A DNA stretch of 64,000 bases from a virus, in IMG/VR virus record IMGVR_UViG_3300034122_002202, positions 32,001 to 96,000 of that record. One strand, written 5' to 3'. Position 1 is the first letter of the stretch. Each line of letters begins with the position of its first letter. Shown piece after piece: positions 3,855 to 39,204 of this stretch. The notes beneath the pieces are model-generated. The model did no database searches. It was not told where the DNA came from and saw only the letters and a list, made by a program, of their open reading frames with translations. Both the position numbers and the translations under genes were made by a program.

Positions 3855-3856
3855 CT

Positions 3857-15800: not shown

Positions 15801-16474
15801 TTACATCTAACTTAAATCCTAATCCATCAGAAGGATTTACTTTAGGGGTTAGTCTTTCTTTGGGAAAAAGATATGAAAATTGTCAAAACATATATGCACA
15901 ATTAATAAATGGTGATGGAACAAATTATGGCGTTTCACATTCAACAGGATTTGTAAATCTTACAAACGGAAATTATCTATTTACTGGAATAATACCAACA
16001 TCATTTAGAGGTGCGATTAAGTTTTATTGTGGGTCTGAACTTTTAGGTGCTACTGCAATTAATCCAGAAGAATATGAAAATGTAGATGTTAAAGTAAGTA
16101 CAAGGTGTGCTACTTCTGGAGTAGGAGTTCCAGCATTAACAAATCCAATACCAATTAATCCAGAAGATCCTATAGAACTAAGACTCACAGATGACTACTT
16201 AACAGAAGAATCAAGGTCGATAGACATAACTTCTGTTGATTGGCCAGATCTAACTGGTTCTACTACAGACTTTATGATTGATTCTAGACCAACATTCATT
16301 AAACGAGCACAGCTACTTAATGGAACATCTTTAAGAATTGAACTTAGCAATGAAGAATTAGCACAAATTGGGGCAGGAAGGTGGTCATATGAATTTAGAT
16401 CTACATTATCTAATACCCATATAATTACGCTGTCTGTTGGCAATATAGTTATAGTGCCACCATTTACCGATTAA
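12866..16474 (+). CDS. STIG1-like Cys-repeat protein with Ser/Thr-Pro stalk and C-terminal putative anchor domain
   Basis: About 18 repeats of CC.G.C.....D..NCG.CG..C, a stalk of about 280 aa SP/TP, and two C-terminal beta domains, the last homologous to the protease C-terminus. AGGAG RBS. Confidence 0.85.
13130..14910 (+). repeat. Tandem STIG1-like cysteine repeats (about 28 aa unit)
   Basis: [61 protein letters not shown] and others. Confidence 0.9.
14918..15766 (+). repeat. (SP)n-(TPSP)n-(TP)n stalk repeat
   Basis: Direct reading of the translation. Confidence 0.95.
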
Positions 16475-17554: not shown

Positions 17555-19354
17555 ATGTTTTTAACTATTGGTATGCCTACATACGATGATTTCGATGGTG
17601 TTTACTTTACACTTCAATCTCTAAAAGCTTATCATGATCTAGAAGGTGTTGAGCTTTTAGTAGTAGATACAAAGCCAAAACTTTGTGAAGACACCAAAAA
17701 ATTGTGCGAAAGTGTTGGTGCTTCCTATTATCATAGACCTGATTGTCAGGGAACAGCACCAGCTAAAAATGCAGTATTTGAACTTGCAAAAGGTAAGTTT
17801 GTTATGTGTGTTGATTGCCATGTTTTGTTAGTCAAAGACTCAATTAAAAAACTTAAAGAGTATTTAAAGCAAAACGAAAATACAAAAAATTTAATTCAAG
17901 GACCACTTCTTTACGATGATCAAAAAAGCACATCTACGCATTTTGATCCAGGCTGGAGAGGTCATATGTATGGAACTTGGGGCAATGATCCTAGAGCTAT
18001 TTCAGAAGAAGAATTTGAAATTCCAATGCAGGGTGGTGGGCTTTATTGCTGTAGAAAAGATGCTTGGCCAAAATTTCATCCAGCATTTCGTGGATTTGGT
18101 TCTGAAGAAGGATACATTCAAGAAAAGTTTAGGCAGAATGGTGGCAAAGCAGTTTGTCTAACATTTTTAAAATGGATACATAGATTTGGCAGACCAAAAG
18201 GTGTTCCATACCCATTATCTGTTGTAGATAGAATTTTTAATTATATTGTTGGTTGGACAGAAATTGGTTGGAATCATAGAGAAGTAATTAATTATTTTAG
18301 TGGTAAAGTAACGCAAGAAGAGCTATTTAAAGCAATTTCTGATTCAGCTAAATTTATTGGCAATCCCACTCCAATAAACTCTTCAGAAAAAAATGCAATT
18401 AAAGTTAAAGCTTATGTTATTGGAAGAGAAAGTGTAACTACTGAAGAATCATTTAAAAAAATTAAATGGACTAAAGAAAAAGAATATATGTTGGGTGCAA
18501 ATTTAAAATCTGTATTAGAAAAATTTATCGCAGAAGGAAATGACTATGCGTTAATATGTAAGGGTAATTTAAGGCTAGAAAAAAATATAAATATAATGAT
18601 TGATTTTTGGCCATTAATTAAAACAGGTCAAGCAAAGATAACTATATTTGATCAGATAAATAAGTCATCTCTAAAGACAAAGCATTCTCAACTTTCTTAT
18701 AAAATTGCAGATATTGACGAACTAGACGATGCACCTTTATATTTTGTTAGCAAAGATTTTGCACAAAAAGTTCTAGATGATTACAAAGAAGGTGCAGAGT
18801 TTTCTTATATTTGTGAAAAAGAAAATATTGTTCCTTTTCTTTATACATTTGAAGAAAACATTCTTAGACTTAGAATGCAATATGTTCCTCTACCTAATGT
18901 TGATGGTGGGCTTTCAGTTGAAGCAGTAAGAGAAATTGTTTGGGCAGCAAGCAACTCGTATTGTTTAGATATAAGCTCAGAAGGTCTACAAACCACCATT
19001 GCTCTTTGCCAAAGGGGTCTTGGAGTAGTTAGAGTAGATGAATATAAAAATAAATCTAAAGAGCAATTACAAACAACAATAAAGAATTTTAGCTATGAAA
19101 ACTTTATTCTTACAGATAAAGAAGATGATTTTCAAGCACCAGAAGAGAACCCTAGAACTCTACTGATTAACTATAAAGGCTTGTCTCAAGAACTTATTGA
19201 TTTTTCATTGGTCAAACAAGAAACATTTTTAAGGTCTAAGGACTGCTTAATTATAGTCAATGCAGACCAAGAAGTTGCAGATATTTATAAAAAATCTGAA
19301 AAACTTAGTGTAATTAATTCATCAGACGATTATTTAATTTTAAAGAAGCTTTAA
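17555..19354 (+). CDS. GT-A glycosyltransferase resembling polypeptide GalNAc-transferases (GT2/GT27-like), with C-terminal extension
   Basis: LTIGMPTYD, LLVVD, AKN...AKGKFVMCVDCH (DxH), PMQGGGL, GFGSEE, QNGG, HRF...PYP; strong AAGGAGG RBS. Confidence 0.8.
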   Translation: MFLTIGMPTYDDFDGVYFTLQSLKAYHDLEGVELLVVDTKPKLCEDTKKLCESVGASYYHRPDCQGTAPAKNAVFELAKGKFVMCVDCHVLLVKDSIKKLKEYLKQNENTKNLIQGPLLYDDQKSTSTHFDPGWRGHMYGTWGNDPRAISEEEFEIPMQGGGLYCCRKDAWPKFHPAFRGFGSEEGYIQEKFRQNGGKAVCLTFLKWIHRFGRPKGVPYPLSVVDRIFNYIVGWTEIGWNHREVINYFSGKVTQEELFKAISDSAKFIGNPTPINSSEKNAIKVKAYVIGRESVTTEESFKKIKWTKEKEYMLGANLKSVLEKFIAEGNDYALICKGNLRLEKNINIMIDFWPLIKTGQAKITIFDQINKSSLKTKHSQLSYKIADIDELDDAPLYFVSKDFAQKVLDDYKEGAEFSYICEKENIVPFLYTFEENILRLRMQYVPLPNVDGGLSVEAVREIVWAASNSYCLDISSEGLQTTIALCQRGLGVVRVDEYKNKSKEQLQTTIKNFSYENFILTDKEDDFQAPEENPRTLLINYKGLSQELIDFSLVKQETFLRSKDCLIIVNADQEVADIYKKSEKLSVINSSDDYLILKKL

Positions 19355-24162: not shown

Positions 24163-25035
24163 ATGAGTGTCACAAATAAGAAGCAGTTTAAGGTAACTTT
24201 GGATAGCAAAGAAATCGAACTTTGTGTTGTTCGACCTAATGTTAAGCAAAGGCAAGAAGGGCAAAAGATTTACAATAAAGCATTTAGAGATGCTGTCGAA
24301 TCTGGAGCAATTCTTCGTGGTAAAGTCAATAATGTTATGCGAGAGCAGAATCTTTGGGATGATAACAAAGAAGCTGAATATCGCAAATTATTGGAAAAAA
24401 TTAATGGGGCAGAAAGAAAGATTAAGTCTGGCGGTATTAAACTCAATCAGGCTAAGGACTTAGCTCTTGAAATGAGGAAAGATCGTGCGGAACTTAGGGC
24501 TTTAACCTCTGAGCGATCATCTCTAGATAATAATACTGCTGAAGGTCAAGCAGATAATGCCCAATTCAATTACTGGGTTAGTTCGTGTACGGTGTATTCA
24601 GAGACAGGGAAAACATATTTTAGTAATTATGAAGATTACTTAAATAGAGATGACGATCCAGCAACTGGACAGGCAGCAGGAAGTCTTGCTATGTTGCTTT
24701 ATAATCTTGATCCAGATTATGAAAAGAAGCTCCCTGAGAACCAGTTTTTATCTAAATATAACTTTGTGGATGAAGAGTTGCATTTAGTTGATAAGACAGG
24801 CCGAAGGATTGATTCTGAGGGTAGGCTAGTCAATAAGGATGGTAGGTATATTAATGAGGCTGGTGAACTCATTGATATTAACGGCAATCGAGTTAACGAG
24901 GAAGGAGATTATGTTGTTGACTTCTCTCCATTCCTTGATGACGAAGGCAAGCCGATTCAAGAAAAAGTTGAAGCTGTTAAAACAACAGAAGCACCAGCAG
25001 TTGTTGTTGAACCAGCAAAGGTCGTTGAGAACTAA
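24163..25035 (+). CDS. Putative tail assembly chaperone
   Basis: GGAGG RBS; directly upstream of the TMP; repeated (D/N)xxGRx(I/V) beta-hairpin units near the C-terminus. Confidence 0.5.
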   Translation: MSVTNKKQFKVTLDSKEIELCVVRPNVKQRQEGQKIYNKAFRDAVESGAILRGKVNNVMREQNLWDDNKEAEYRKLLEKINGAERKIKSGGIKLNQAKDLALEMRKDRAELRALTSERSSLDNNTAEGQADNAQFNYWVSSCTVYSETGKTYFSNYEDYLNRDDDPATGQAAGSLAMLLYNLDPDYEKKLPENQFLSKYNFVDEELHLVDKTGRRIDSEGRLVNKDGRYINEAGELIDINGNRVNEEGDYVVDFSPFLDDEGKPIQEKVEAVKTTEAPAVVVEPAKVVEN

Positions 25036-25055
25036 ACGGACAGTATCGCATAGAT

Positions 25056-25105
25056 GGGCAGGGTTTAATCGTAGAAGTAACTACGCTTATGCTCTGCCCT
25101 TTTTT
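25056..25105 (+). terminator. Terminator/attenuator hairpin upstream of TMP
   Basis: gggcagggt...cgtag-aagtaa-ctacg...gctctgccc followed by tttttt. Confidence 0.7.
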
Positions 25106-25119
25106 ATTGAGGTATAAAA

Positions 25120-28100
25120 ATGGCTTTTAATTTAACTGCTCAATTGAATATTGCTCTCAATAGTGCTTCTTTGAGAAATGCTTCAAGTCAGATAAATTCA
25201 GCATTAAATACAAACACGCAAATAAAGCTTGGTATTGATAGAAATAGTTCTTCTGGATTGGGGCAAATAAAGTCTCAAATTTCTGAAGCTACTGATTCTA
25301 TGGAGAACTTTGGTAGACAAGCTGGCTTTGCTGCCAAAAGGTTTGCTGCATTTGCCGTTACTGCTGGCTCAATCATTGCTTTTACTAACACAATGAAAGA
25401 AGCCGTTTCTGCTGCCGTAGATTTTGATAGAGAAATGATTAGATTAAGACAAGTTTCTTCAGACACAGTACAAGATGTTGCTGCTGTAGGTGATCAAGTA
25501 ACAAATTTATCTAAAAATTTAGGTGTTTCTAGCAAGGATTTGATTGGCGTAGCAGTAGTTTTAAAACAAGCTAACTTAACTCTTTCTGAAACTAAAGATG
25601 CCTTAGAAGCAATGGCACAAGCTGCTTTAGCACCAAACTTTGATAACCTCAAAGATACGACTGAAGGTGCTATTGCTATTATGAAGCAGTTTAAGGTTGA
25701 GGCAAAAGACCTTGGTGCAGCTTTAGGTTCTGTTAATGCTGTAGCGGGTGAGTTTGCTGTTGAAGCATCAGACATTATTGAGGCGATTAGAAAGACAGGG
25801 GGTGCATTTAAAGCTGCTGGTGGTCAATTAAATGAACTTATAGCTTTATTTACATCAGTACGACAAACGACAAGAGAAAGTGCCGAAAGTATTGGTACTG
25901 GTTTGCGAACTATATTTACACGAATACAAAGAAATGATACGGCTAACGCCCTAAAAGAAGTTGGTATAAATCTTAGGTATACAGCAGAAGAGGCTAGAGC
26001 TTTAGGAGATGTTGGATTAGAACAGCAGTTTGTTGGTCCATATGAAGCAGTCAAAAGATTATCTGCTGGACTTTCTGAACTAAGGTCAACAGACCCCCGA
26101 TTTAGTGCCATTGTTGAGCAATTAGGTGGTTATAGGCAGATCAGTAAGGTTATCCCACTTATTCAAGAATTTGCTACTGCACAGAAGGCATTGGGTATAG
26201 CTCAAGCTGGTAGTGTGTCTTTAGCTGTTAATGCTGGTCAAGCACAGGATGCTCTTGCTGTAAAACTACAGAAGTTGAAGGAAAGCTTTTTTGAGGTTGG
26301 TAGAAGTATTGTTAATAGCCCCGGCTTTAGAAGTTTAGCTGATACATTCATTGGTGCTGCCACTTCTGTTTTGTCATTAATCAATTCACTTAAAGGTTTA
26401 CTCCCATTATTTACTGCCCTTGCTGCCGTAAAAATTGGTCAAGGACTTGGCTCTTTTGCCACAGGTTTTGTAAAAGGTGCTGGTGCAGATACTTCATCTA
26501 TTAAAAAGACAGGGTCAGCTAGAAAAGCAGATGGTGGTTTTCTTAGGATGCAAAAAGGTGGCATAGTTCCTGGAAGTGGAACTGGAGATAAAGTGCCAGC
26601 TTTGCTTGAGCCAGGTGAGTTGGTTGTGCCTAGAAATCAAGTTGTAAGACAAAAGTACAATCAAGAAAACATGCCAGGAAATGCTGGAGAAGTAAAAAGT
26701 GCAACAATAAAAGGAAGACAAAGATTAAAAAACAAAGAAGGGCAAAATTTATTTTCAACATTGGATTTGCCACAAAACACACGCAAGATTTCTGTATCTG
26801 AATGGTTGTCTAAAAAAATTCCTGGAAGTGAAAATATAGATGTTGATGATGAAAAACAAGTTTCAGAATATTTAGCTAAAAAGAAAAAAAATAAATCAAA
26901 TAAAGCTAAAAAAGAAACTCATTTTACTCATGGTGATTTAGGGTATACTTATGAAATTAAAGATGCAAGTGGACAAACGACACAAACAAAACATTATTCA
27001 AATATTGGTATAGATTTACCGAGCAATTGGAATTTAGATTGGAATAAACAACCAAACCATATTTTTGTTAAAGGAAAAACGCTTCAGAATTACATTCAAA
27101 AAAGAAATGTTTTTAAGACATTCCAAGGAAAAGGATCAACATCAAGTTTATATACAACAAAAGACTTAAAAGAATTTTTTAGTAAAAAAGAAAATATAAA
27201 AAATGCAAAGTCAATATTAATTAATTCAATAAATGCAGATCAAAAATATGATATTGATCCACAGGTTTCTAATTCTTTAGAACCAGCGTTTGCTAATATT
27301 AACAATTTAATCAATAAGTTTCATGACAAAGAAGAAGGCAATCAAAATTTTGGAATAACCGCATTTTCAAAAAATAAAAAAATAATAAGAGTACCAAAAA
27401 ATACTGGTGGATCGGTTAATAGACAGAGATTTATGGAAGGTGAAGAAGTAACTCATCGTAAAGCTTTTCTCGATAATTCATTTAATCCTGGCATGAAGTT
27501 AAAGTCTGCATTGCAGGACACCCCAAGAATTATATTCAAAAGACAACCAAAGGAATATGAAAAATTCCCAAACATGGATCACACATCCCCTCATTTTGAA
27601 CAATTTTCAGAAATGTTTGTTGGTTCCAGAAAAGCATCTCAGTTTAAAAGAGCCGTTGAATATCAAAGGTTGTACCAAGAAGCACTTAAAAATAATGATG
27701 TAGAATCAGCTAATAAATACGACAAACTTAATAAATTGCCAGCCAATATGAGATTGTTGGCAGCAGCAAAAGCATTGCCTTCAGCCCAAGAAAAAGCCAG
27801 AACAAATTCGTTTGAGGATGGAAATTTTGATTATGAGAAAAATCTATTAGTTAATTATAGTGGTAAAAAAACCACAACAAGACATGAATTAGGTGCTCAT
27901 GCTGCTGCTTATGGGGCTTCAAAAGAAGGTTCTCCTTTAGCAAATTCTCTTTTTGGATCTATTGGTAGGCGTATGGGGGCATATGGCAAAGGAAGCGGTG
28001 AAACGACTCTTATTTCTGAAATGCAAGCACATACTATTCAGTCTGCAAAACAAAAAGATAAAATTAACTCTTTGAAAGAGTTTATTTCTTCAGAGAAAAT

Positions 28101-31100
28101 GGCAAAACTTTATAAAAGTGAAGCTCATGGAACACTTGCTGATTCAATGCAAAAAGGTTCTGAGATACCAACAGCAGGAGTATTGGGTGGTAGACATAAA
28201 GATATAGAAATTGATGTTCTTAAAAGAATGATGCAAGATGCTTATGGAGATAATCCAGAAGTTCTAGCTGAAAAAATGTCTCTTTTAAATCCAAGTGATT
28301 CATCTAATAGGGTTAATTTTGGTGCTCTTTTTGCAGACTCAAAAGAAACTAAAAGATATGCTTTTGGTGGAAATGTAGGCAGACAAATGTTTGCTGATGG
28401 CGATAAGGCTACTGCAAAGCCACAAAGCTTTGAAGAATTTTCTAAAGGATTAAACCCAAAACAATTGGCAGATTTTAAAGAAAAAATAAAATCAGCTAAA
28501 CAAATAATAGTAAATGCAAGAACATCTGGATCAATGAAATTAAAGTCTGTTGGATTTAATTTTCTTGGTACAAAATTTAATATGATACCAAATAAAGATC
28601 TTGCAGACAAAGGAAGTGCAAAATCAAAAGATGGAAAACCAACATATGACTTAAAAGGAGTTAAATCTTTAGATGAGCTTCTTTCTAAAATACCACCAAA
28701 TTATTCAGAAGAACTAAGAGCAAAAATTGGTAGAGCACAAGATAAGTTTCTAGGAACAAAAAATATTAAAGACCTTAAGTTTGCTTATGATTTTGGCGAT
28801 AAGCGTGGCCCATTAAATATACAGCTAGAAAAAGATGTGATAAAATTTGGAAGTATTGCTTCATTTCCTTGGAAACCAAAAACAAGAAAAGAAAAACGCA
28901 CTGAAGAATTAAGAATAGCCACAGAAAGAAACGCTAGAAAAAAAGCTGAGAATATAGATAAATCAAGACAAAAATCAGAAACGGCATCAGGATTAAGTTC
29001 TTTAATTTCATCAATAGATGAAGAAAATCAACAAAATAAATTTTACGGAATCGCTAGAGATACAAAAGTATTTGAGGGTTCAGATCAATATAAAGAGTTA
29101 CAAAAAAAATTAGCTTTAGATAGACAGCGAAGAGAAGGAAGAGGACTGCCTAATTCAACAGAAAGCGTAGAGCCAGAAAATCTAATTGGAATAAATGAAA
29201 ACTATAAAGCAATTCAACCTATTAGTGGAACATCGCCACAAGCACAAAAATTAAGAATGCAAATGGAAGAAAGGGAATTTCAAGGCCCAATTATTGGAAT
29301 AGCAAAAAACCAAAAAACTAAAAAAGAACCAAGAGTTAAAAAAACAGAAAGTGAAAGATATAAATTAGCAAGAACACAATCTGCACCAAGACAAGAAAAA
29401 ACCTTATTTGATGAAAGCGAACTTTCTAAAATAGGTACATATCAAACACAAGAACAGAAGTTTAAAGACAATGCTGATAAGATAAAGAGATTTAGGGATG
29501 CAGCAAGTGAAAGTGCTAGAGTTAAATTTAACTTAAATCCAAGACAACAAAGAAGAGCAATAGCTAATGAAAATTTGGCAGATAACTTAATGAGTTTAAG
29601 GTCTAAGGGAACTGGAAAGCCAATCGTATCACAGGCACAAGCAGTAGCACCAGCACCAGCACCAGCATCAATTGCTGCACAAGCAACAAATAGAAATTCT
29701 GCTGTTGAAAGTGTAATTCTTAAGGCTTTAGCTGGTAAACAAAGTGAATTCTGGAAAACACTTAGGGAAAAAGTAGGTGATAACGAATCTATTAATAAAG
29801 CACTTGCAAGCTTACAAGATCAAGGAAAAGTAGTAGGAGATCCAAACAAAATTGGTTTCTACTTACTTGCAGAAAAAAATAAAGTAGCTAAAACTCGAAA
29901 AACAAAGCCAGTTGTTTCAGAGCCAATAACAACTACTTCAACTAGAGCACCATCACCACAAATTCCAGAAGATTCCTATAATCCCTATGGTAAACCAAAA
30001 AAACCAAGGGCGAAAAAAAATACTGCCAGTTCTGCACAACAAAGCAATTTTTATAATGCACAAGAATCTGAATATCAAAAACTATTAGATAGCATTAATG
30101 CTCAGTCCAGATCTAAAAAAGTAAGTCGTTTTGCATCTGGTGGATTAGTACCAGGAACTGGCAATTCTGACACTGTTCCTATGGATTTGCCCGAAGGCTC
30201 TTTTGTAATTAGAAAGTCTTCAGTTAATAAGATAGGGGCAGATAATTTAGCAAAAGCCTCAAGATTCGCCAATGGTGGTATTGTTCCTGCGTTACTAACT
30301 CCTGGTGAATATGTATATAGTCCAGAAGAAGCAAGTAAAATTGGATCTTCAAAATTACATGCAATGAATAAGTTTGCCAAATTTGCTAGGGGTGGACCTA
30401 TTGGTCTTGGAAGAAGCGGTAAGTTTGATCCAAATAATCCAGATGATATTAAAAAATTAAAAGAAACTCTTGAAGAACAATTAAGGTATGAAGACCCAAA
30501 CAAAGATGAAAATACTGTACAAATAGAAGTTAAACAAAATACAGATGAAATACAAAGAAGAGCACAGCAATATACATCAGATGAAAATGCAAGACAACAA
30601 GCAGAAACAACTGTTAATAGTAGAAATGCATTGGTTGCTAGACAAAGAGGAAGGGTTGGTGCTTCACAACAAAATGTTAATGCTGCAAGATCAAATGTTC
30701 AATCTGCTACTACAGCAAGAGACTCATATATTGATGAGGCAAACACACAAAGAGGATTAGTTGCATCTAATCGACAAGAAGCCACAAGACAGCAAGCAAG
30801 AATAACATCTTTAACTGCTAGGGGTGCATCAGCAACTGACCCTAGATTGATTGCTGCTAATGCTGCTTTGATAGCAGCTACTACTGCGGAAGCAACTGCT
30901 AGAAATTTACAAGCTAGAGCAACAAGGAACGCAATTTCTGCTAACAATCAAGTTGTTGCTAATACAAACACACTTAATGGATTATTAGTTACGCATGGAC
31001 AAGAAGTAAGGAATTTAACTAGAGCCGAAAATGCAGCAACAACCGCAGTACAAGGTCTTGAGGCAGCAACACTAAAGGCTGAAGGATCAGCACAACTATT

Positions 31101-34100
31101 AGATGAATATCAACAAGATGCAGCAGGAAAAGTTTTGCTTGCTGGAAAAGTAATTGGAGAAACAAAGCCACTTTCTGGTCGTGGCTCAATGGAAAATATA
31201 TTAAAAAGAAAAGAAGCAGATTACGAAAAACAAACAGGTAGAAAAGCAGGAAAAAACGAAAGAGAAACATTAAAAGGTGATGCACTTTCTGAATATAGAA
31301 CGGCATCAGAAAAACAACTTAGAGCAAAAGCAGTACAAAGTGGTAAACCAATAAGCGAATTAAATCTTCAAGCTACTGCTGATCAATACACTAGGGAATT
31401 TTCTGAAGGAAAAAGAAAAGCTAATTATAATAAACAAGGAGAAATTATTGGAGATAGATCTTTAGCTGGAGATCTTACTGGTAATGCAAGAAGAGGAAAA
31501 ACAAATACTGATTATACTGCCGAAGGCGATTTAACTTCTAAAGGTAAAGTAAAAGACTTTGCTTCTAGAGCAATTTTTGGTGCAAAAAGAACTGACTTTG
31601 AAGCTGGATCAGAAGGGGATCAACAGTTTAAAGAATCAAGAGGAAGTACTTTAGCTAACAGACTAACTACTGCTGCCGTTGGAGCTAGTTTTTTAAGTGA
31701 AAGAATTAAGTCTTCTGGTGGAACAGTAGCGGGAATAGTTTCTAAGGGCGAAGGAGATACTGTAAAAGTAGATGAAGGTGCAGCTTCTAGTTTTAAATCA
31801 GCACAAGCTTTTGGTGCAGCACTAAGTTCAGCAAGTACATATGCTGCTGTTGCTGGTCAATCATTAGCTAAATATGGTCTAGTTGTTGCTGGTGTAGGTG
31901 CTGGATTAGCTGGAATAGTTGGTGCATTTGAAGGCTATCATAATGGAATAAAACAAGCAGAAGCAGAAATAAGAGAAGCAAAGATTGCTCAAGCATTAAA
32001 TAATTTGCAAAATATATTTGAAAGAGTATCAAATGGCTTGCTTGAAGTAAATGATTCTACACTAAGAAAAATATCTGAAAATCAAAAAGTTGTTAGTCAA
32101 GAAAACGCTACAAAAGCATATGAAGAATCTGGTGGCAACAATAGTCGTTTTATGAAAGCCTTAAACACTATTAGTTTTGGACTAACTGGAACTGATGTAA
32201 ATCAAAAAAAGTACAATGAAGCATTATCCAAATCTTCAAAAGAAACTAACGCTGCACAAATAGGGCCATTAACTAATGTTTTAAATAAATATAGTGAACA
32301 AATAGGTAAAGATGCAGCACTTAAAATAAAATCTGGCGGTGGAGATATATCTACAACAAATTTTGAAGATATCAAGGGTGGATTACTTAAAGATTTGAGG
32401 TCTTCTGGTGGCGGTGCAGGGGCCGAACAAATAGCTAAGATTGCTTCTGCTCAAGATATTAGCATTGCAGATGCAGAAAAACAATTTATAAAAACACTGC
32501 AAGAGTCTTTCCAAGCAGAAAAAATAAAGTCTGTAACTACTAAAGCAGTACAAGAAAATGCAAGGGCTATAAATTCAATGCAGTCACTTAGCAATGCAGT
32601 TAATGCTGCTGCTGCATCTGCCGATTCTTTTTCATCAAAGTTAGATACAAATTCATCATTATTTGAAGGTTCAATTGGATCAACAAAGCTAACTTCTTTT
32701 GCAGAAAGAAGCGGTGGATCAACTCCCGATTTTGCAAAATTTAATATGGCAATAACTGAATCTGCTGGATTATTAGGTGCTTATGGACAAGAGTTTAAGA
32801 GTCAAGGTAATGCAGTAAATGCAGCAAGTCAAATTTTACCAGACATTCTTGCACAATCTGTAGCTAATCCAATATCTGGTAAAGAAACAGCAACACAAAT
32901 AACTGATGCATTAAAAGAAGGGTTAAAAGCAAGAGGAATAACAGGTGCTGCTGCTGATCAAGTAGTAAGTTCTGTTGGTGGAAAAGTATCATCAGAAGAC
33001 TTTACTAAATTGTTAGCTGAAGCTGGTGGCGATGTTTCTAAGGCAACCCAAAAATTATTATCTGACATTCGTGATCCACTCATAAGTGCATTTACCGAAA
33101 TAGATAATAAATTAACTGAAGCTGGAAATAAATACATAAGTGGCCTTGAGGATTTAGCAAAAAGACAAAAGGCTATTGGTGATCAAATAGGAAGACTTTC
33201 TGAGTTAAGAAGTAGGTCTAGATCTTTTGCAGCCAATGAAATACAAAGACTTCCTGGGGCACAACAAGGAGTAGCAGAAAACATAAACTTGCAAGGTGCA
33301 AGAAATGATTTTTCTGAACAACAACAAAGACTAACTGGTTTTGGTGCTGGTGCAGCAGAAAATCCTGCTGCCATAGCTTCTAGATTAAAAAACACGCAAC
33401 AACAAATAAGAGTTCAAGAAGAGAAAGTATTAAATACAAACAAGTCTACAAATGGTGGTGCAGAATTTAGAAATGCAGCATTAGAACTAACAAAATTAAA
33501 ATCTCAAGCATCTAATTTAAATGATGCATTAAAAAACCTTACTGATCAATCAAAGAAACTAGAAGCAGCACAAGCTAAACTTGCACAAGTTAGACAAAAT
33601 ATAGATGAAAAAAGAACTTTAGGAAGAAGATTATTAACTCAAAGTCCAGAAGAACAACAAAAAATGTTGCAAGGACAGGCAGTATTTAATCAAGTACAAG
33701 CTAGAGGTGGCAGTCTTCAAGGTATGAGTACTGAGCAAAATGCTATTCTTTTTGATTTTCTAGATAATTTTGGTGCTGCTGGAAAAAAAATACAAGACCA
33801 AATACTTGATGCTAATGGTTATGGTGCTGGCAAAGATGATAAGGCAGAAGAAAAAGCTCTCGTTGCAGAACAAGCTAGAATTTTTGCCCAACAAGAAGAG
33901 GCACAAAGACAGATAATAGCTAATCAGCAATCATTGCAACAAGACTATTTTAGTAATTTAGATTCAAGAAATGAAAAGTTTTATTCTGAGTTGCAAAAGT
34001 TTATTCAAGAGATGCAGAAGAACACATTAATAGCAGAAAAAGGAAAAGAACAACAAAAAGCAGCACAGATTAAAGATGTTCAAAAAGAAGGCAAGTTTTT

Positions 34101-37100
34101 AGGTGAATCTGGATTTAATACTAAAGAAGATTTTGAAAAATTAAATACATATAAAGGACAAGTTGAAGATTTAGCAAAAAACAAACAAGAACAAAAAAGA
34201 TTAGCCGAAGCAAATTCTAAGTCTATTAGGACTCGTATAAAAACAGATGATAATAATGTAATTACTAATACTACTGATATTGAGAGCGATTTAGTAAAAC
34301 AAGGTGGATATAAAGCAAGTGAAGCTACAAAAATAAGAGAAATTACGCAAGAAAAACTTTCTGAGGGAAATAATGCAAGTGATTCGTTAAGATTGGCAAA
34401 AGAACAATTTCAGCAACAAAGAGGGGATGAACTTAATGCACAACAAACAAAAATACAAGATAATTTTAAAGCTTCTGGAATTGAAGAAAAATTAAATAGT
34501 TTAGTACAAAAATTAGCTGGTAATGAAATATCATTTGTTCAATTCGATAGAGCTTTAGCTAGCGTTAAAGAACTTCAACTTGGAGTTGGTGAAGGATTAT
34601 CTACTGCTGCAATAGGTGCTGAAGCAAGAATAAAAGCTTTAAATGAAGCTATAAATGGACTTGGTGGAATTCAACAATTGCCAAATGCAGAAGCCAAACC
34701 TCAAGTTTCAGCTTTTGCTGTTGGTGGTTCAGTATTTAAACCAAGGGGTACAGATACAGTTCCTGCAATGTTGACACCAGGAGAATTTGTAGTAAATAGA
34801 AGTGCTACACAACAAAATCTACCATTATTACAATCTATAAATAGTGGAAAAACATCTTATCTTAGTGGTGGTGGAAAAGTTGGGTATTATGAAGATGGTG
34901 CTACTCCTGTTGAAAATAAACCACTTAATTACAATCAAGAATTTATTGAAAGTGATGAATATAAAAACGCTACTAAGACAAAATATTTGCAAGTAAATAG
35001 TTTTTCTGGAGATTTAGAATCTAAAGCATTTAAACTACAAAAAGATAAAACAAATAACGATTATTTAAAAGAATCAAATGTGATTTTTGGTTCTTTTAGA
35101 GGATTAACTTCAACTATAAATAAAGCTATTTCAAATAGTAATGAAAAAGAAAATATAAGTAAAATATACAGTAAAAACTTTACAACATCAGCAAATGATT
35201 TTATTAAAGAAAGAAAAGATATAAAAGAATTGGGTATTGATGGACTATACAATCATAATGACTTTGCTTATGATCTTGAACTAAAAAATCCAACAGCATC
35301 TATTTTAGATTTTTTTAATAAACAAGCAGAAAAGGATGCATCATCAAGGAATACTGGAATAAATAGTTTTGAAAGTCAAAAAGAAAAACTTAAAAATAAA
35401 ATAGCTGCAAAAAAATCACTAACAAATGCTCTTGGTGGAGGACTTAGTATATTATCTGGTGGAATATTAAATCTAACGCCCACTTATTCAGAATTTGACA
35501 ATTTTTTTCCAACCACTAAACTTGGTAAAAAACAAAAAGAAGTGGAAACTTCATCTAAAGATTATGTTGATTTTGCATTAGGAGTAAAACAAAAAGGTGA
35601 TCCAGAACAGATGGATTATACGCAAGATGTTGCTAACGCAAGAAAACAATTTGACAAAAGAAAAGCAGAAGAAAGACAAAAAATAATAGATGAACAACAA
35701 AAATTAAAAAATGAAAAAGAAGGGCAGTTTAAAAAAGACACATCAGGAAAATTAGACACTTCAAATGTTTTAGATAAACAAGGTGTTATTGCAAAAACAA
35801 AAGATATAGAAAAACAAAAAACAAAACTTAAAGAGTCAGGCATTCAAGGTGACTATGTAAATAGCGGATCAATTAATGAAGTAGGAGCACAAAATGTAGA
35901 TAAATTTATTAAAGAAAAGGGTGCAAAAGAAGACAATTATTTCTTTAGAAGAAAAGGAAGTCCAGAAGCTATAGCAAAAATATATTTGCAAAGAGAGGCA
36001 CAGGCACAGGCTATTATTGGAAAAATGAAGTTGATACAAAATGATCCAAATATAAATTTAGAAAAAATTGATCCTAAAGTTTCTTTTGCAACTGGACAAA
36101 AAGAACTTCAAAAATTAATAAATGGACAAGAAACAGCTATAGATAAAAAATCACTATCAAATATATCACCAGGACAAAAGAAAATAGTTGGTTCATTTAT
36201 AACTATGAACTCTTTTGAAAGTGCTGCAACTTCAAAAGGTCCAGAAATGGATTCATATATAGAAACATATGGAAAAGCCATAAATAAAGATCCACAAGTT
36301 TTAATTGAAAAATTAATAAAGGCAAAAGAAAAAAGATCTGATATTAGCGGTGATCCAGAATTTATAACTGCACAAGCACAAGGCATATTTGAAGCTTTGA
36401 TGTTTTTAGATAGAGAAGCTAAAGCCAATAAAGTATTTGCAAATAGAAATCAAATAAAAAAAGGAAAAGGTTTGCTTGGTGTTTTAGAAGAAAAATCTGA
36501 AAAAAACATTAAGTCTTTTACAAAGTTTGGAAAATTAAAAGGAAATATAGATGATAAAGGATTAGGGAATGTAGATTTTGGTGCAAAAGACCCTACGGAA
36601 GTAGACTTTAATACAACTAATTTTAGAACTGCTATTCCACCACAAAGCATAGAAGATATTAAGAAATTGGCATCTTCTAAAAATGGCATCAATAACAATT
36701 TACTTACGGATCTTGGAGCAACAGCAAGCATTAGCAATTATGGATACTTAAATTTTCCTACAGTAAAAGACGATGTTGTTTTAGGATTAGAAAAAGATGG
36801 CGGTTTGTTTAAAGTAAATTCTTTCCCAAAACAAGACGCTGAAGGAAAAACAACATTTGAAAGACAAGCAAAAATTGCATTATTAGAAAATAAAAATACA
36901 TATCAACAACTAGTGGAAATATCAAAACAAATCAAAGGAACGCCAAGCGTTGATCTTAAAGGCCCATCAGCAAATGTTCAAGCTAATCCTAATCAAAATG
37001 TTAATACTTTTGATCCAAATGGAGATCCAGCACAACAAATTAAACAAATACAAAAAGAAAAACAAAATGCAAAAGCAATAGAAGCAAAAGAAACAAAAAC

Positions 37101-39204
37101 AACAAGAAGAGATGTTAAAAATTTAAATAAAATTGAAAACCCTAGATTTAATGTTGGTCAAAGAGTTCCTACTAGAGATGAATTTCAAAACGACACAGTA
37201 GATTTATTTAAAAACTTTGTAGAACTTAAAAACACTCTTTATAGACAAAAATCAAAAGAACTTATTGTAGGACAAGATTCAGATAAAATAGTTAATACCG
37301 ATCAAAGCTTATATGAAGGAGAAAAAGAAGCTCAATATGGAAATAATCTTCTAGCATCTTCATTTAAATATTTTACAAGAGATCCAAATGCTCAAAAATT
37401 AGATTATAGCATAAGAGAAATAAGTACTTATTTTCCTATTGAAGAACCATACACATATAAGTTAAATAGGTATCCAGAACTTTTAGCAAAGATCGCTAAT
37501 TTTTATAAATTTGGAGAACAAACAGAAGGATCTCCAGAGTATGTAAAGTCTGTTGCTAAATTAAAAAATGATGCAGAAGTAGATACTAAAGCTTTATCTG
37601 TGTCAGTTCAAAATGCAAAGAAAATGGAAGATTATTATGATTCATTAATACAACAAAATAATCTTTTATTAGAACCTCCTACTGCACCAACACCAGTTGG
37701 TTTTGACCCAACAAGGTTTGCGACACAAAATAGTCAAATACCTATATATAGAGCAACTGGCGGTAATGTTCCATCATATAGACCAAATCCTAATCCATCT
37801 TACTTTAAGCCTAAAGGTACAGATACAGTACCCGCTATGTTATCCCCTGGTGAGTTTGTAATAAATGCTGGTGCTACTGCCAAACATGGCGATTTATTAA
37901 GTGCGATAAATAGTGGGCAAGATGTTGGGTATTCTGCCACTGGTGGTTTAATAGAATATCTTGCTTATGGAGACAATGCAACTAGCTTTAACAAGCGATT
38001 AAAAAATGCTGGCATTACTCAAAAAGGAATGATGGAAGCAATTCAATCTGGTGATCAGCAGCAGATATATGAAATGAATCTTAAAGCAGGAGATGCACAG
38101 AGAAATAGTAGAAATGAAGCTCTTAGTAAAAATCTTGAAAAGCAACTTGGATTTAATTTCTTTAAGGGATCAGATGCTAATAAAAAAAGAGGCGTAGAAA
38201 GAATTGGAGATGCAGGAAACTATGGTGAAGGACCACAAGAGGTTGGTTCATATGCAATAGAAACTAAACCAATACAAATAGCAAAAATTGAAGCACAAGC
38301 ACAAAAAAAACAAAAATCGCAACAACAAATGACTATGCCATTACGCCCACCTACTCAACAAACAACAACAACTCCACCAGATCCAAAAGATAAGAAACCA
38401 GATACCACAGGTGCAGCAACAACAACACAAACACAAAGTATAGGGGAAATAGAACAGTTAAAAGCCAAGATGGCAGCATTACAAGAACAACAGGATGCTA
38501 TGGCCAATGAAGAATTATACTTTTTTAAAGGTGGAATGCCAACATCTAGTTCTGACACTATTCCAGCCATGTTAACTCCAGGTGAGTTTGTCGTTAACGC
38601 AAGATCATCATCTAAGAACGCATCTTTGTTACACGCAATAAATACTGGAAAAGATGTTGAAGGCTTTGCAAATGGTGGTACTGTTGGTTATTATGCTGGA
38701 GGAAAAACAGGTGGTGGAGGAAAAACATCTAGCTTACTTTTGCAAGCTGCAATAACATTTAATAATGGAACATCAAGATTTGATGCTGCTATATCAAGAA
38801 TGAACAGGCCTGATGGCGGTTCTAACAATAACAATCAAATAAACATAGCAAAGTCTAGTTTTGAAGAACTTTCAAGAATATTAAAAACTGAAATAAAAAT
38901 AGGATCAGGACCAATAGACAAATTTAATAATGCAGTTACACAATTTGGTACAAACTTAACAGGATTTAACAGTGGATTTAGTTCATCATTAGAAAAATTT
39001 AAAACATATGCAGATGAATTAAATGCTGCAATAAGTAGAATACCAGGAACATTAAACTTACAAATAATTGGAAACTTAAATGCTTCTTTAAATGTTAGTT
39101 TTGATGTAAATAGTGTTTATATGGCAGTAACAGATGCTACCACATCCCTAAAAGGATGGATAACTAGTGAAATAAGTAGGCAAATAACAGATGAAATGGC
39201 TTAG
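25120..39204 (+). CDS. Giant tail tape measure protein (4694 aa) with inserted domains
   Basis: N-terminal TP901-family TMP core (AVDFDREM...VNAVAGEFAVEA...TTRESAESIGTGLRTIFTR), hydrophobic Gly/Ala segments, coiled coils, and repeated DxVPAMLxPGE motifs. Confidence 0.93.
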   Translation: MAFNLTAQLNIALNSASLRNASSQINSALNTNTQIKLGIDRNSSSGLGQIKSQISEATDSMENFGRQAGFAAKRFAAFAVTAGSIIAFTNTMKEAVSAAVDFDREMIRLRQVSSDTVQDVAAVGDQVTNLSKNLGVSSKDLIGVAVVLKQANLTLSETKDALEAMAQAALAPNFDNLKDTTEGAIAIMKQFKVEAKDLGAALGSVNAVAGEFAVEASDIIEAIRKTGGAFKAAGGQLNELIALFTSVRQTTRESAESIGTGLRTIFTRIQRNDTANALKEVGINLRYTAEEARALGDVGLEQQFVGPYEAVKRLSAGLSELRSTDPRFSAIVEQLGGYRQISKVIPLIQEFATAQKALGIAQAGSVSLAVNAGQAQDALAVKLQKLKESFFEVGRSIVNSPGFRSLADTFIGAATSVLSLINSLKGLLPLFTALAAVKIGQGLGSFATGFVKGAGADTSSIKKTGSARKADGGFLRMQKGGIVPGSGTGDKVPALLEPGELVVPRNQVVRQKYNQENMPGNAGEVKSATIKGRQRLKNKEGQNLFSTLDLPQNTRKISVSEWLSKKIPGSENIDVDDEKQVSEYLAKKKKNKSNKAKKETHFTHGDLGYTYEIKDASGQTTQTKHYSNIGIDLPSNWNLDWNKQPNHIFVKGKTLQNYIQKRNVFKTFQGKGSTSSLYTTKDLKEFFSKKENIKNAKSILINSINADQKYDIDPQVSNSLEPAFANINNLINKFHDKEEGNQNFGITAFSKNKKIIRVPKNTGGSVNRQRFMEGEEVTHRKAFLDNSFNPGMKLKSALQDTPRIIFKRQPKEYEKFPNMDHTSPHFEQFSEMFVGSRKASQFKRAVEYQRLYQEALKNNDVESANKYDKLNKLPANMRLLAAAKALPSAQEKARTNSFEDGNFDYEKNLLVNYSGKKTTTRHELGAHAAAYGASKEGSPLANSLFGSIGRRMGAYGKGSGETTLISEMQAHTIQSAKQKDKINSLKEFISSEKMAKLYKSEAHGTLADSMQKGSEIPTAGVLGGRHKDIEIDVLKRMMQDAYGDNPEVLAEKMSLLNPSDSSNRVNFGALFADSKETKRYAFGGNVGRQMFADGDKATAKPQSFEEFSKGLNPKQLADFKEKIKSAKQIIVNARTSGSMKLKSVGFNFLGTKFNMIPNKDLADKGSAKSKDGKPTYDLKGVKSLDELLSKIPPNYSEELRAKIGRAQDKFLGTKNIKDLKFAYDFGDKRGPLNIQLEKDVIKFGSIASFPWKPKTRKEKRTEELRIATERNARKKAENIDKSRQKSETASGLSSLISSIDEENQQNKFYGIARDTKVFEGSDQYKELQKKLALDRQRREGRGLPNSTESVEPENLIGINENYKAIQPISGTSPQAQKLRMQMEEREFQGPIIGIAKNQKTKKEPRVKKTESERYKLARTQSAPRQEKTLFDESELSKIGTYQTQEQKFKDNADKIKRFRDAASESARVKFNLNPRQQRRAIANENLADNLMSLRSKGTGKPIVSQAQAVAPAPAPASIAAQATNRNSAVESVILKALAGKQSEFWKTLREKVGDNESINKALASLQDQGKVVGDPNKIGFYLLAEKNKVAKTRKTKPVVSEPITTTSTRAPSPQIPEDSYNPYGKPKKPRAKKNTASSAQQSNFYNAQESEYQKLLDSINAQSRSKKVSRFASGGLVPGTGNSDTVPMDLPEGSFVIRKSSVNKIGADNLAKASRFANGGIVPALLTPGEYVYSPEEASKIGSSKLHAMNKFAKFARGGPIGLGRSGKFDPNNPDDIKKLKETLEEQLRYEDPNKDENTVQIEVKQNTDEIQRRAQQYTSDENARQQAETTVNSRNALVARQRGRVGASQQNVNAARSNVQSATTARDSYIDEANTQRGLVASNRQEATRQQARITSLTARGASATDPRLIAANAALIAATTAEATARNLQARATRNAISANNQVVANTNTLNGLLVTHGQEVRNLTRAENAATTAVQGLEAATLKAEGSAQLLDEYQQDAAGKVLLAGKVIGETKPLSGRGSMENILKRKEADYEKQTGRKAGKNERETLKGDALSEYRTASEKQLRAKAVQSGKPISELNLQATADQYTREFSEGKRKANYNKQGEIIGDRSLAGDLTGNARRGKTNTDYTAEGDLTSKGKVKDFASRAIFGAKRTDFEAGSEGDQQFKESRGSTLANRLTTAAVGASFLSERIKSSGGTVAGIVSKGEGDTVKVDEGAASSFKSAQAFGAALSSASTYAAVAGQSLAKYGLVVAGVGAGLAGIVGAFEGYHNGIKQAEAEIREAKIAQALNNLQNIFERVSNGLLEVNDSTLRKISENQKVVSQENATKAYEESGGNNSRFMKALNTISFGLTGTDVNQKKYNEALSKSSKETNAAQIGPLTNVLNKYSEQIGKDAALKIKSGGGDISTTNFEDIKGGLLKDLRSSGGGAGAEQIAKIASAQDISIADAEKQFIKTLQESFQAEKIKSVTTKAVQENARAINSMQSLSNAVNAAAASADSFSSKLDTNSSLFEGSIGSTKLTSFAERSGGSTPDFAKFNMAITESAGLLGAYGQEFKSQGNAVNAASQILPDILAQSVANPISGKETATQITDALKEGLKARGITGAAADQVVSSVGGKVSSEDFTKLLAEAGGDVSKATQKLLSDIRDPLISAFTEIDNKLTEAGNKYISGLEDLAKRQKAIGDQIGRLSELRSRSRSFAANEIQRLPGAQQGVAENINLQGARNDFSEQQQRLTGFGAGAAENPAAIASRLKNTQQQIRVQEEKVLNTNKSTNGGAEFRNAALELTKLKSQASNLNDALKNLTDQSKKLEAAQAKLAQVRQNIDEKRTLGRRLLTQSPEEQQKMLQGQAVFNQVQARGGSLQGMSTEQNAILFDFLDNFGAAGKKIQDQILDANGYGAGKDDKAEEKALVAEQARIFAQQEEAQRQIIANQQSLQQDYFSNLDSRNEKFYSELQKFIQEMQKNTLIAEKGKEQQKAAQIKDVQKEGKFLGESGFNTKEDFEKLNTYKGQVEDLAKNKQEQKRLAEANSKSIRTRIKTDDNNVITNTTDIESDLVKQGGYKASEATKIREITQEKLSEGNNASDSLRLAKEQFQQQRGDELNAQQTKIQDNFKASGIEEKLNSLVQKLAGNEISFVQFDRALASVKELQLGVGEGLSTAAIGAEARIKALNEAINGLGGIQQLPNAEAKPQVSAFAVGGSVFKPRGTDTVPAMLTPGEFVVNRSATQQNLPLLQSINSGKTSYLSGGGKVGYYEDGATPVENKPLNYNQEFIESDEYKNATKTKYLQVNSFSGDLESKAFKLQKDKTNNDYLKESNVIFGSFRGLTSTINKAISNSNEKENISKIYSKNFTTSANDFIKERKDIKELGIDGLYNHNDFAYDLELKNPTASILDFFNKQAEKDASSRNTGINSFESQKEKLKNKIAAKKSLTNALGGGLSILSGGILNLTPTYSEFDNFFPTTKLGKKQKEVETSSKDYVDFALGVKQKGDPEQMDYTQDVANARKQFDKRKAEERQKIIDEQQKLKNEKEGQFKKDTSGKLDTSNVLDKQGVIAKTKDIEKQKTKLKESGIQGDYVNSGSINEVGAQNVDKFIKEKGAKEDNYFFRRKGSPEAIAKIYLQREAQAQAIIGKMKLIQNDPNINLEKIDPKVSFATGQKELQKLINGQETAIDKKSLSNISPGQKKIVGSFITMNSFESAATSKGPEMDSYIETYGKAINKDPQVLIEKLIKAKEKRSDISGDPEFITAQAQGIFEALMFLDREAKANKVFANRNQIKKGKGLLGVLEEKSEKNIKSFTKFGKLKGNIDDKGLGNVDFGAKDPTEVDFNTTNFRTAIPPQSIEDIKKLASSKNGINNNLLTDLGATASISNYGYLNFPTVKDDVVLGLEKDGGLFKVNSFPKQDAEGKTTFERQAKIALLENKNTYQQLVEISKQIKGTPSVDLKGPSANVQANPNQNVNTFDPNGDPAQQIKQIQKEKQNAKAIEAKETKTTRRDVKNLNKIENPRFNVGQRVPTRDEFQNDTVDLFKNFVELKNTLYRQKSKELIVGQDSDKIVNTDQSLYEGEKEAQYGNNLLASSFKYFTRDPNAQKLDYSIREISTYFPIEEPYTYKLNRYPELLAKIANFYKFGEQTEGSPEYVKSVAKLKNDAEVDTKALSVSVQNAKKMEDYYDSLIQQNNLLLEPPTAPTPVGFDPTRFATQNSQIPIYRATGGNVPSYRPNPNPSYFKPKGTDTVPAMLSPGEFVINAGATAKHGDLLSAINSGQDVGYSATGGLIEYLAYGDNATSFNKRLKNAGITQKGMMEAIQSGDQQQIYEMNLKAGDAQRNSRNEALSKNLEKQLGFNFFKGSDANKKRGVERIGDAGNYGEGPQEVGSYAIETKPIQIAKIEAQAQKKQKSQQQMTMPLRPPTQQTTTTPPDPKDKKPDTTGAATTTQTQSIGEIEQLKAKMAALQEQQDAMANEELYFFKGGMPTSSSDTIPAMLTPGEFVVNARSSSKNASLLHAINTGKDVEGFANGGTVGYYAGGKTGGGGKTSSLLLQAAITFNNGTSRFDAAISRMNRPDGGSNNNNQINIAKSSFEELSRILKTEIKIGSGPIDKFNNAVTQFGTNLTGFNSGFSSSLEKFKTYADELNAAISRIPGTLNLQIIGNLNASLNVSFDVNSVYMAVTDATTSLKGWITSEISRQITDEMA

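Follow-up and report, generated by a model that had tools for sequence, protein, structure and literature searches.

The tape measure gene and its repeated units

The 64,000-nucleotide stretch of DNA analysed here (the window) corresponds to positions 32,001–96,000 of the IMG/VR virus record IMGVR_UViG_3300034122_002202, a genome of 141.8 kb with direct terminal repeats that is rated complete and for which no DNA-level match to any cultured phage was found. The largest gene within a same-strand block of large open reading frames (ORFs) in this window encodes a giant tape measure protein (TMP), along which a Gly-rich unit recurs six times and separates segments that differ from one relative to another. 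As judged from its sequence, the product is a phage tail TMP of the PhageMin_Tail/TP901 type: PF10145 (PhageMin_Tail) matches aa 125–335 with E 4e-23 (82.7 bits, the cut-off being 33.2), phrog_28 (“tail length tape measure protein”) matches aa 18–453 with E 4e-22 and the N-terminal domain is found, among the tblastn matches listed, in SPbeta YomI and in Bacillus phage TMPs with 24–27% identity. An earlier note on this DNA had reached the same identification; its start at 26521, however, falls within the gene, the true start being at 25120 (Table 1). The chain has no Cys and only 6 Trp in its 4694 residues, the Kyte–Doolittle hydrophobic peaks lie at aa 70–88, 410–437 and 2248–2273, and the secondary structure of the regions modelled with AF2 is mostly helix.

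The repeated unit is Gly-rich, 40–75 aa long, and its consensus reads (F/Y)AxGG, 5–15 residues of any kind, GTDTVPAMLTPGEFVVN, a short helix ..LL..IN.G and (F/Y)xxGG; in the aligned copies the central element takes the form G(T/S)D(T/K)VPAMLTPGEFVVN, followed by the helix-like ..LL..IN.G and the second (F/Y)xxGG. The six copies that the earlier note had placed by eye are recovered by two means: the expression [VI]P[AM][MLD]L.[PE]G[ES] occurs at exactly six sites (aa 492, 1686, 1722, 3214, 4237 and 4481), and against a profile hidden Markov model (HMM) built from 12 units, those of the window and of the related locus L003, the window copies score 50–102 bits each, far beyond chance. Their (F/Y)AxGG starts lie, as had been proposed, at nt 26548, 30130, 30265, 34714, 37747 and 38518 (aa 477, 1671, 1716, 3199, 4210 and 4467). 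The short motifs read by the same note at nt 27400 (NTGG..RQRFMEG) and 28357 (YAFGG..RQMFADG) are likewise real, the pattern GG.{2,5}RQ[RKM]F being matched 62 times, in 35 members of a set of 259 related giant proteins, as opposed to once in shuffled copies.

Within the gene the unit copies are only 61–76% identical at the nt level and their synonymous differences are scattered, so that the units are to be regarded as old and as maintained by selection acting at the protein level; the same data rule out an origin of the repeats by gene conversion or recent duplication. The tandem, head-to-tail pair of units is present in 9/9 other giant TMPs with listed unit positions (P0002–P0027 and L003). 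The prediction of the unit as a homotrimer (three copies, 53-row alignment) gave a score of 0.01, compared with a mark of 0.42, and weighs neither way; the AF2 pLDDT of the M5 unit is 24–44.

Table 1. Features of the tape measure gene and of the ORF preceding it. Nucleotides are numbered as in the window and residues as in the TMP.
Feature	Residues (aa)	Nucleotides	Strand	Remarks
ORF immediately upstream of the TMP gene		24163..25035	+	290 aa; no PHROG match, no Pfam match above cut-off
TMP gene		25120..39204	+	single uninterrupted ORF, 4694 aa
Constant N-terminal domain	1-473	25120..26538	+	common to 127/152 other proteins, blastp E<1e-5
Unit M1	474-512	26539..26655	+	shortened copy, GG..GGIVPGSGTGDKVPALLEPGELVV; 50 bits to unit profile
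Variable cassette region A (sub-modules A1-A4)	513-1665	26656..30114	+	common to only 14/152 other proteins
Minor junction motif 1	759-775	27394..27444	+	PKNTGGSVNRQRFMEGE; L002 homology resumes at aa 762
Module A2	776-1078	27445..28353	+	HELGAH at aa 922-927; bracketed by the two minor motifs
Minor junction motif 2	1079-1094	28354..28401	+	RYAFGGNVGRQMFADG; L003 homology resumes at aa 1096-1098
Module A4	1494-1670	29599..30129	+	absent from L002; winged-helix-like domain aa 1521-1586
Tandem units M2-M3	1666-1768	30115..30423	+	head-to-tail; 69 and 55 bits
Constant central segment B	1769-3194	30424..34701	+	Ala/Gln-rich; hydrophobic stretch aa 2248-2273
Unit M4	3195-3260	34702..34899	+	canonical copy, 102 bits; 83% nt-identical to L003 copy, flanks unalignable
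Variable cassette C	3261-4208	34900..37743	+	common to 9 proteins
Unit M5	4209-4284	37744..37971	+	84 bits; 87% nt-identical to L003 copy
Variable segment D	4285-4463	37972..38508	+	Gln/Thr/Pro-rich; common to 4 proteins; low pLDDT
Unit M6	4464-4529	38509..38706	+	last unit, 165 aa from C-terminus; 96 bits
C-terminal domain, plus stop codon	4530-4694	38707..39204	+	kept in 8 relatives, 28-95% identity, always last segment

Constant scaffold, exchanged cassettes and spread of the unit

The relationship between units and variable segments emerges from the comparison with two close viral contigs, L002, which is 3′-truncated, and L003, whose TMP has 5617 aa. The blocks shared by the window and L002 are 98–99% identical at the nt level; the homology ends at aa 504, i.e., at the end of the M1 core, and resumes at aa 762, within the first minor motif, the sequence in between having been replaced. 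Furthermore, a 176-aa block (aa 1494–1670) of the window is missing from L002, and the right edge of this block is exactly F1671 of FASGG. When the window is compared with L003, the units stand out as islands of 76–87% nt identity, and cassettes C and D are without any DNA similarity. The same picture extends to ten relatives, in which the N-terminal domain, segment B, the C-terminal domain and all the units (25–97%) are alignable wherever the region exists; A1–A4, C1, C3 and D often score 0, and region A is replaced, wholly or partly, in 10/10 cases. In the wider set of 152 proteins to which Table 1 refers (150 multi-unit proteins, the L003 TMP and a Nodularia phage TMP), segment B is common to 24, occupying segment index 3 in 18 of them.

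If breakpoints are taken as the ends of blocks having at least 85% identity over at least 150 aa, in all ordered pairs of 12 close relatives, 78 out of 100 are found at most 25 aa from a unit, the number expected from the fraction of sequence covered being 13.6; the pairs are non-independent and without phylogenetic correction, so that the printed p-value is not meaningful though the enrichment is large. As to the window protein, 7 of its 12 distinct breakpoints are located at units, 2 at the first minor motif and 3 elsewhere (aa 711, 1494 and 1994). These comparisons demonstrate, at the level of sequence, that the units mark the points at which close relatives have exchanged cassettes by recombination. 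The earlier note had conceived the motifs as possible sites of modular insertion and had suggested alignment with relatives as a check; the L002 edges at aa 504 and F1671 and the breakpoints clustered near the units bear this conception out, and the inter-motif segments have turned out to be neither collinear nor conserved. Single-linkage clustering of 917 inter-unit segments was uninformative, 347 of them being chained into one component.

The synonymous divergence (dS) between the window and L002 varies approximately eight-fold along the TMP gene, from 0.008 (aa 3576–4000) to 0.064–0.068 (A2, A3 and B), a variation indicative of recent recombination inside the gene, which is in this respect a recombinant mosaic.

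Neither Pfam nor NCBIfam contains a model for the junction unit, whose distribution is wide. Compared with 1.84 billion cluster representatives, the unit profile matches 23,950 at E<=1e-3, 6,656 at E<=1e-10 and 1,125 at E<=1e-30, and the best 150 of these matches are proteins of 1156–7872 aa with 3–11 copies each. A search with the N-terminal 470 residues, limited to proteins of 2581–8215 aa, returned 946 proteins at E<=1e-10 among the 1528 scored, and 106/106 newly fetched homologues of this domain hold 3–8 unit copies. Among cultured phages, the units and the N-terminal domain are the only parts of the window protein with partners, and all of these are annotated as TMPs (of Gordonia, Nodularia, Ralstonia, Rhizobium, Pseudanabaena and other phages). 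Ordinary TMPs of ~850–1700 aa also bear one or two units, as exemplified by Douge gp16 (PDB 8ZDO), in which two copies (aa 965–1013 and 1413–1461) are detected with E 1.2e-8, or 2.6e-5 with a second profile; no T5-like TMP was among the matches of the unit in the profile search of the PDB. In P0210 and P0220, which carry a PF02817 domain (E3_binding, peripheral-subunit-binding), the tandem pair comes right after unit 1, an arrangement by which the order of the units varies further.

The positions of the units were re-scanned locally in 153 proteins, namely the best 150 matches and the TMPs of the window, L003 and the Nodularia phage. Copy number was found to track protein length (r 0.73, with a mean of 797 aa per copy), and the spacing to be irregular (median 760 aa, range −10 to 2671); the median start of the first unit is aa 523, and the median distance from the end of the last one to the C-terminus is 144 aa. 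These figures bear on a purely assembly-related interpretation, according to which the units would recur along the chain as sites of docking or registration with the tail assembly chaperone, with the lumen of the tube or between chains; the cassettes would then serve mainly as spacers by which length is set, free to drift and to recombine, with enzymes as occasional passengers. The scaling of copy number with length, that is roughly one unit per 800 aa, and the stereotyped location of the units (after the N-terminal domain, as the tandem pair, flanking segment B and close to the C-terminus) speak for this interpretation, whereas the marked unevenness of the spacing, the tandem copies, which are ill-suited as spacing marks, and the one or two units carried by TMPs of ordinary size speak against it; taken together with the properties of the cassettes described below, these data make it in our judgement rather unlikely.

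Contents of the cassettes and neighbouring genes

The segments between the motifs had been described in the earlier note as rich in Lys, and so they are, Lys accounting for 13% of the residues in aa 521–1670 and aa 3266–4210, whereas the N-terminal and central portions contain 6–8%. Between the window and L002 the ratio of non-synonymous to synonymous divergence (dN/dS) is <0.25 in every region of the TMP with enough differences, with values of 0.04 for A2 (12 synonymous and 2 non-synonymous changes), 0.22 for A3, 0.14 for C1 and 0.24 for segment B, all derived from small counts. The cassettes are real, selected protein modules and not neutral filler. The artefactual origin of so long an ORF, by misassembly or by run-through of several genes, has nothing in its favour beyond the unusual ORF size; given this constraint, and given that the uninterrupted architecture recurs in L002, L003 and hundreds of independent metagenomic proteins, its probability is negligible.

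Module A2 is a discrete module. The distance from motif to motif, ~320 aa, is identical in the window and in 5 relatives, and in P0106 the module is present twice, in a different segment (segment 5); the low dN/dS and the reuse of modules elsewhere point to a sequence-specific function, which is at variance with the cassettes being freely drifting spacers. In the A2-homologous cassettes HERFH, HEFGH, HELGGH or HEFGGH is found in place of HELGAH, and this HExx(x)H element may represent a metallopeptidase-like signature, albeit without profile or fold support: HELGAH has no match to a Pfam peptidase or to a known fold, the pLDDT of its helix is 33–46 and its spacing is not that of the canonical HExxH. 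A word-based search for shorter proteins having module A2 (aa 781–1095) returned none at E<=1e-3.

The mean AF2 pLDDT is 52.0 for aa 474–1665 (12-row alignment) and 45.9 for aa 3261–4460 (7-row alignment). The confident patches in region A are small helical modules joined by linkers of low confidence (aa 643–738, aa 813–888 with pLDDT up to 94, and aa 963–1063, 1103–1163 and 1523–1573); cassette C is predicted to contain a helical domain of ~280 residues (aa 3555–3835, pLDDT 60–93) followed by beta strands. Structure prediction of the segments, another check put forward in the earlier note, gives therefore folded patches and not plain coiled coil. Two of these patches provide leads as to their nature: aa 1521–1586 give VIA matches to winged-helix proteins with Z 5.0–5.4 and at most 26% identity, as well as DUF5805 at E 1e-3, below cut-off, all of them weak, and a small beta-barrel at ~aa 3798–3923 gives recurring OB-fold-like VIA matches with Z 5–6, which are not decisive. 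In the Foldseek comparison of both models with the PDB nothing was found at E<=1e-3, and in the wide VIA fold search the best Z values, 6.2 and 7.0, are within the background range, the models being long, mostly of low confidence and based on shallow alignments, with single domains barely tested by such searches. In the ESM Atlas aa 3555–3925 and aa 781–1165 match only unnamed viral clusters (0.79–0.89). The prediction of most of A, C and D as long helices or with low confidence is a point in favour of the spacer interpretation.

Enzyme domains of effector type, such as the earlier note had surmised in the segments, are found in relatives; the window segments are without a recognisable enzyme, no Pfam, NCBIfam, PHROG or fold match identifying one. 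In P0199 (3697 aa, N-terminal domain 57% identical) ART-PolyVal covers aa 534–735 with 82.2 bits, the cut-off being 31.2, and in P0256 (4516 aa) ADPrib_exo_Tox covers aa 1417–1576 with 67.6 bits, the cut-off being 23.4; both ADP-ribosyltransferase domains sit between unit 1 and the tandem units, i.e., in the position occupied in the window by cassette A. Of the best 120 of the 946 homologues, 13 have PF18760 (ART-PolyVal), 6 PF28597, 2 PF02817, 1 PF03496 and 1 PF13441, and only 23 of the 120 have any Pfam family besides PF10145, a paucity that again suits the view of enzymes as occasional passengers. No ART-PolyVal was found in the window's own genome. According to the precomputed annotation, PF28597 is carried by P0008, P0155, P0157, P0166, P0167 and P0197. 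Two candidates read by eye were dropped, namely a staphylococcal-nuclease-like segment in P0008 (SNase E 0.052, 14.4 bits with a cut-off of 21) and a P-loop, nucleotidyltransferase and HELGH combination in P0027; both proteins, taken whole, gave only PF10145.

The ORFs scanned between 16524 and 49236 yielded zero PHROG matches and a single Pfam match above cut-off, a GT2 domain in ORF 17555–19354, so that the presumed placement of the TMP in a tail module relies on gene order and size. By its position, the 290-aa ORF preceding the TMP gene is a possible tail assembly chaperone. The region 24163..25035 contains no −1 slippery heptamer, and stops abound in its −1 frame; an open +1 frame extends across 24830–25115, with a 92-aa ORF (24839–25117) overlapping the 290-aa ORF. 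A frameshift product of the chaperone, if any, would for these reasons require a +1 or a −2 shift.

Some genes upstream of the TMP are worthy of mention in their own right. The ORF at 12866–16474 (+; 1202 aa) contains 10 stretches of the Cys-rich STIG1-like PF04885 (E 1e-79) and lies in a block of high G+C content (0.44–0.45, compared with ~0.30–0.35 nearby), which is unusual for a phage structural region. The GT2 match consists of an N-terminal family-2 glycosyltransferase domain (E 8e-11) in a 599-aa product (17555–19354, +) amid presumed structural genes. A collagen-like tail-fibre protein (1629–3854, +; PHROG 5073, E 9e-45) is encoded upstream of the TMP rather than downstream, and also upstream is a 1081-aa ORF (9611–12856, +) with a C-terminal FN3-like Pur_ac_phosph_N domain (E 3e-7).

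A probable ruler and carrier, and its possible cleavage

The giant TMP is probably a modular ruler that serves at the same time as the carrier of exchangeable accessory cassettes. Its constant scaffold consists of the N-terminal PF10145 domain and segment B, both with hydrophobic helices, and of the C-terminal domain; along this scaffold are placed the six Gly-rich units and the two FAxGG..RQxFxxG junctions, and A, C and D, in between, are the exchangeable cassettes. Following what is established of TMP biology, the entire chain would be extended in the tail tube, setting the tail at ~0.7–1.1 micrometres. TMPs are ejected before the DNA, as described in three reports (PMC10713586, PMC12617516, PMC13033339), and because of this the cassettes would arrive in the envelope or the cytoplasm of the host as soon as infection begins. 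The units would most likely be flexible, structurally autonomous joints allowing any cassette to be inserted without disturbing assembly, and joints tolerating any neighbour would explain why recombinants with new cassettes survive only when the exchange occurs at a unit. Cutting of the units would not be required by this mechanism.

An estimate of tail length can be derived from Nodularia phage vB_NpeS-2AV2, whose tail is given as 795 nm (Table 1 of PMC6293099). Since its TMP has 3404 aa (L005 6058–16272), the ratio amounts to 0.234 nm per aa, and the tail of the window phage is expected to be 1096 nm long at this ratio and 704 nm long at 0.15 nm/aa. A value of 0.234 nm per residue exceeds the 0.15 nm rise of the alpha-helix and suggests that the TMP in very long tails may be more extended than helical.

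Several considerations weigh against the ruler-and-carrier interpretation. By the 2AV2 ratio, the ruler function takes up the full chain, with no slack for compact folded cargo in the tube, and this need for the entire TMP length also speaks for the assembly-only interpretation. Approximately two thirds of both AF2 models have a pLDDT <50, with long helices and coil, so that ruler sequence, extended or disordered, could make up a large part of A and C. Conserved units tend by themselves to end alignments, a property that, like the non-independence of the breakpoint pairs, tempers the association of breakpoints with units. Finally, neither A and C, examined in 9 tiles, nor the whole protein has a Pfam match above cut-off save PF10145 and, as no cassette has an enzyme match, the notion of “cargo” and of cassettes acting in the host would, for this phage, be founded on analogy with its relatives.

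A further question is whether the units are also cut. The whole-PDB profile search gave, for aa 732–786 of lambda gpH, a weak match (E 0.33–0.39) equalled by the score of an antibody chain; a targeted hhalign comparison with gpH residues 700–853 aligned aa 733–785 with a probability of 84.5% (P 6.9e-6) and the pattern FATGG...GEFV...YATGG. By these alignments, the unit probably corresponds to aa 733–785 of gpH, next to the region in which gpH is converted to gpH*. According to the Ur-lambda paper (PMC12617516), gpH is cut within a Gly-rich region (aa ~681–800) to give H* of ~78 kDa and a fragment of ~14 kDa, the site being unmapped and the protease unidentified; a cut after FATGG-737 would yield 80.1 and 12.2 kDa.

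In the polyprotein interpretation, that of the earlier note, the (F/Y)AxGG elements would be cleavage sites used during tail maturation or after ejection, and the separate products would act as independent effectors. Besides the alignment with gpH, this possibility is favoured by the fact that two different junction types start with the same aromatic-A-x-G-G, an indication that function may centre on this element, and by the Pro/Thr/Ser/Gln-rich linkers preceding M2, M5 and M6 (33–47% of the residues, compared with 23% overall). The conserved HExx(x)H of module A2 offers a parallel to polyvalent proteins, for which release by embedded zincin peptidases has been proposed (PMC5512222). Set against these points are the noise-level score of the lambda match in the database-wide search and the properties of HELGAH already mentioned, i.e., its non-canonical spacing, the missing Pfam peptidase match and the low pLDDT of its helix; in addition, Prok-JAB, JAB, Peptidase_C39, Peptidase_C48 and NlpC/P60 were all absent, at E<=1, from a six-frame search of the 141.8-kb genome, most of whose genes match no known family. 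Furthermore, a TMP cut before assembly could not measure the tail, so that cleavage would have to be late. On balance, the cleavage of this TMP into effectors is somewhat doubtful. As to the enzyme, a lambda-gpK-like JAB/NlpC protein cutting at GG is unsupported, there being no such gene detectable in the genome.

In its most comprehensive form the idea would be that, in a large and widespread group of siphophages with very long tails, the tail lumen is a channel for the delivery of effectors: the giant TMPs would be polyproteins that enter the host before the DNA and are cleaved at aromatic-A-x-G-G, as in the conversion of gpH to gpH*, thereby releasing changing cassettes into the host, the unit acting both as cleavage signal and as recombination-tolerant joint. 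Some phages would release ADP-ribosyltransferases in this way, and the phage considered here modules resembling nucleic-acid-binding proteins and metallopeptidases. We regard this comprehensive form as unlikely.

TMPs in general are already known, and so are, each separately, TMPs of giant size, those in which cell-wall enzymes are embedded, those that undergo cleavage, and polyvalent proteins. The TMPs of Thermus phages P23-45 and P74-26 are of ~5000 aa. Lambda gpH, an 853-aa TMP, resembles the window protein in having a Gly-rich unit (FATGG .. GEFV .. helix .. YATGG, aa 733–785) some 70 aa from its C-terminus, but has one unit instead of six and no inter-unit cassettes, and the genome of the window lacks a detectable gpK-like JAB or NlpC/P60. 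Nodularia phage 2AV2, with a genome of ~140 kb and a TMP of several thousand residues, shares the tandem unit pair (aa 884–990); it differs in having only these 2 copies, and its N-terminal domain is not among the 30 of 79 listed matches to that of the window protein.

The T5 protein pb2 is reportedly endowed with membrane and muralytic roles. In two reports, pb2 and its DT57C counterpart are presented as multifunctional TMPs cleaved near the C-terminus and ejected (PMC10713586, PMC12617516), and in the second of them it is proposed that the C-terminal fragment degrades the cell wall (PMC12617516); unlike the array of cassettes seen here, this is a single-function add-on. Mycobacteriophage TMPs embed small functional motifs, e.g., peptidoglycan hydrolases (PMC1796659). 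The likeness to the window protein resides in the host-like motifs embedded in TM4/Barnyard-type TMPs and in the two significant unit copies of Douge gp16 (1699 aa), the difference in the N-terminal family, in the much shorter length and in the embedded motifs being cell-wall enzymes and not ADP-ribosyltransferases. The part of the Douge paper at hand makes no mention of the units, and only residues 1658–1699 are modelled there (PMC13033339).

Polyvalent proteins (Iyer et al. 2017) are a parallel as far as the cassettes are concerned, being giant, mosaic, fast-evolving, multi-module and delivered together with DNA; ART-PolyVal, present in 13 of the best 120 TMP relatives, is a family of ADP-ribosyltransferases whose definition comes from such proteins in phages and conjugative elements (PMC5512222). 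In the text of that paper polyvalent proteins are described as packaged in the head or delivered by conjugation, and the word “tape” occurs 0 times (PMC5512222). In the case described here, by contrast, it is the tail ruler that would serve as carrier, and a junction unit that recurs along the chain delimits the modules; moreover, the window protein has no recognised polyvalent-protein domain, and its relatives P0199 and P0256 have one such domain each. Within the parts of the literature available, and with supplementary proteomics outside the scope of the search, no published description was found of a repeated gpH-type unit that marks cassette exchange points in giant TMPs, some with ADP-ribosyltransferases. 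What emerges is a real and widespread modular TMP architecture that has apparently gone undescribed so far.

The usual view of TMPs is that of rulers to which a cell-wall enzyme may at most be joined. One grammar is followed by at least 946 metagenomic TMPs of 2.6–8.2 thousand residues, consisting of a constant scaffold, repeated junctions and hypervariable cassettes. The close relatives having TMPs of 4597–5617 aa offer a ready-made means of testing the ruler rule for tails in the micrometre range, and the unit is a testable candidate for the gpH → gpH* cleavage region of lambda, which has remained unmapped for some 40 years. Should the cassettes be active in the host, the protein that enters the cell first would be a programmable anti-host or anti-defence payload whose exchange points are marked by a motif and, if this is true, the junction motif would be useful both for the discovery of early-acting phage effectors and for the engineering of tails.

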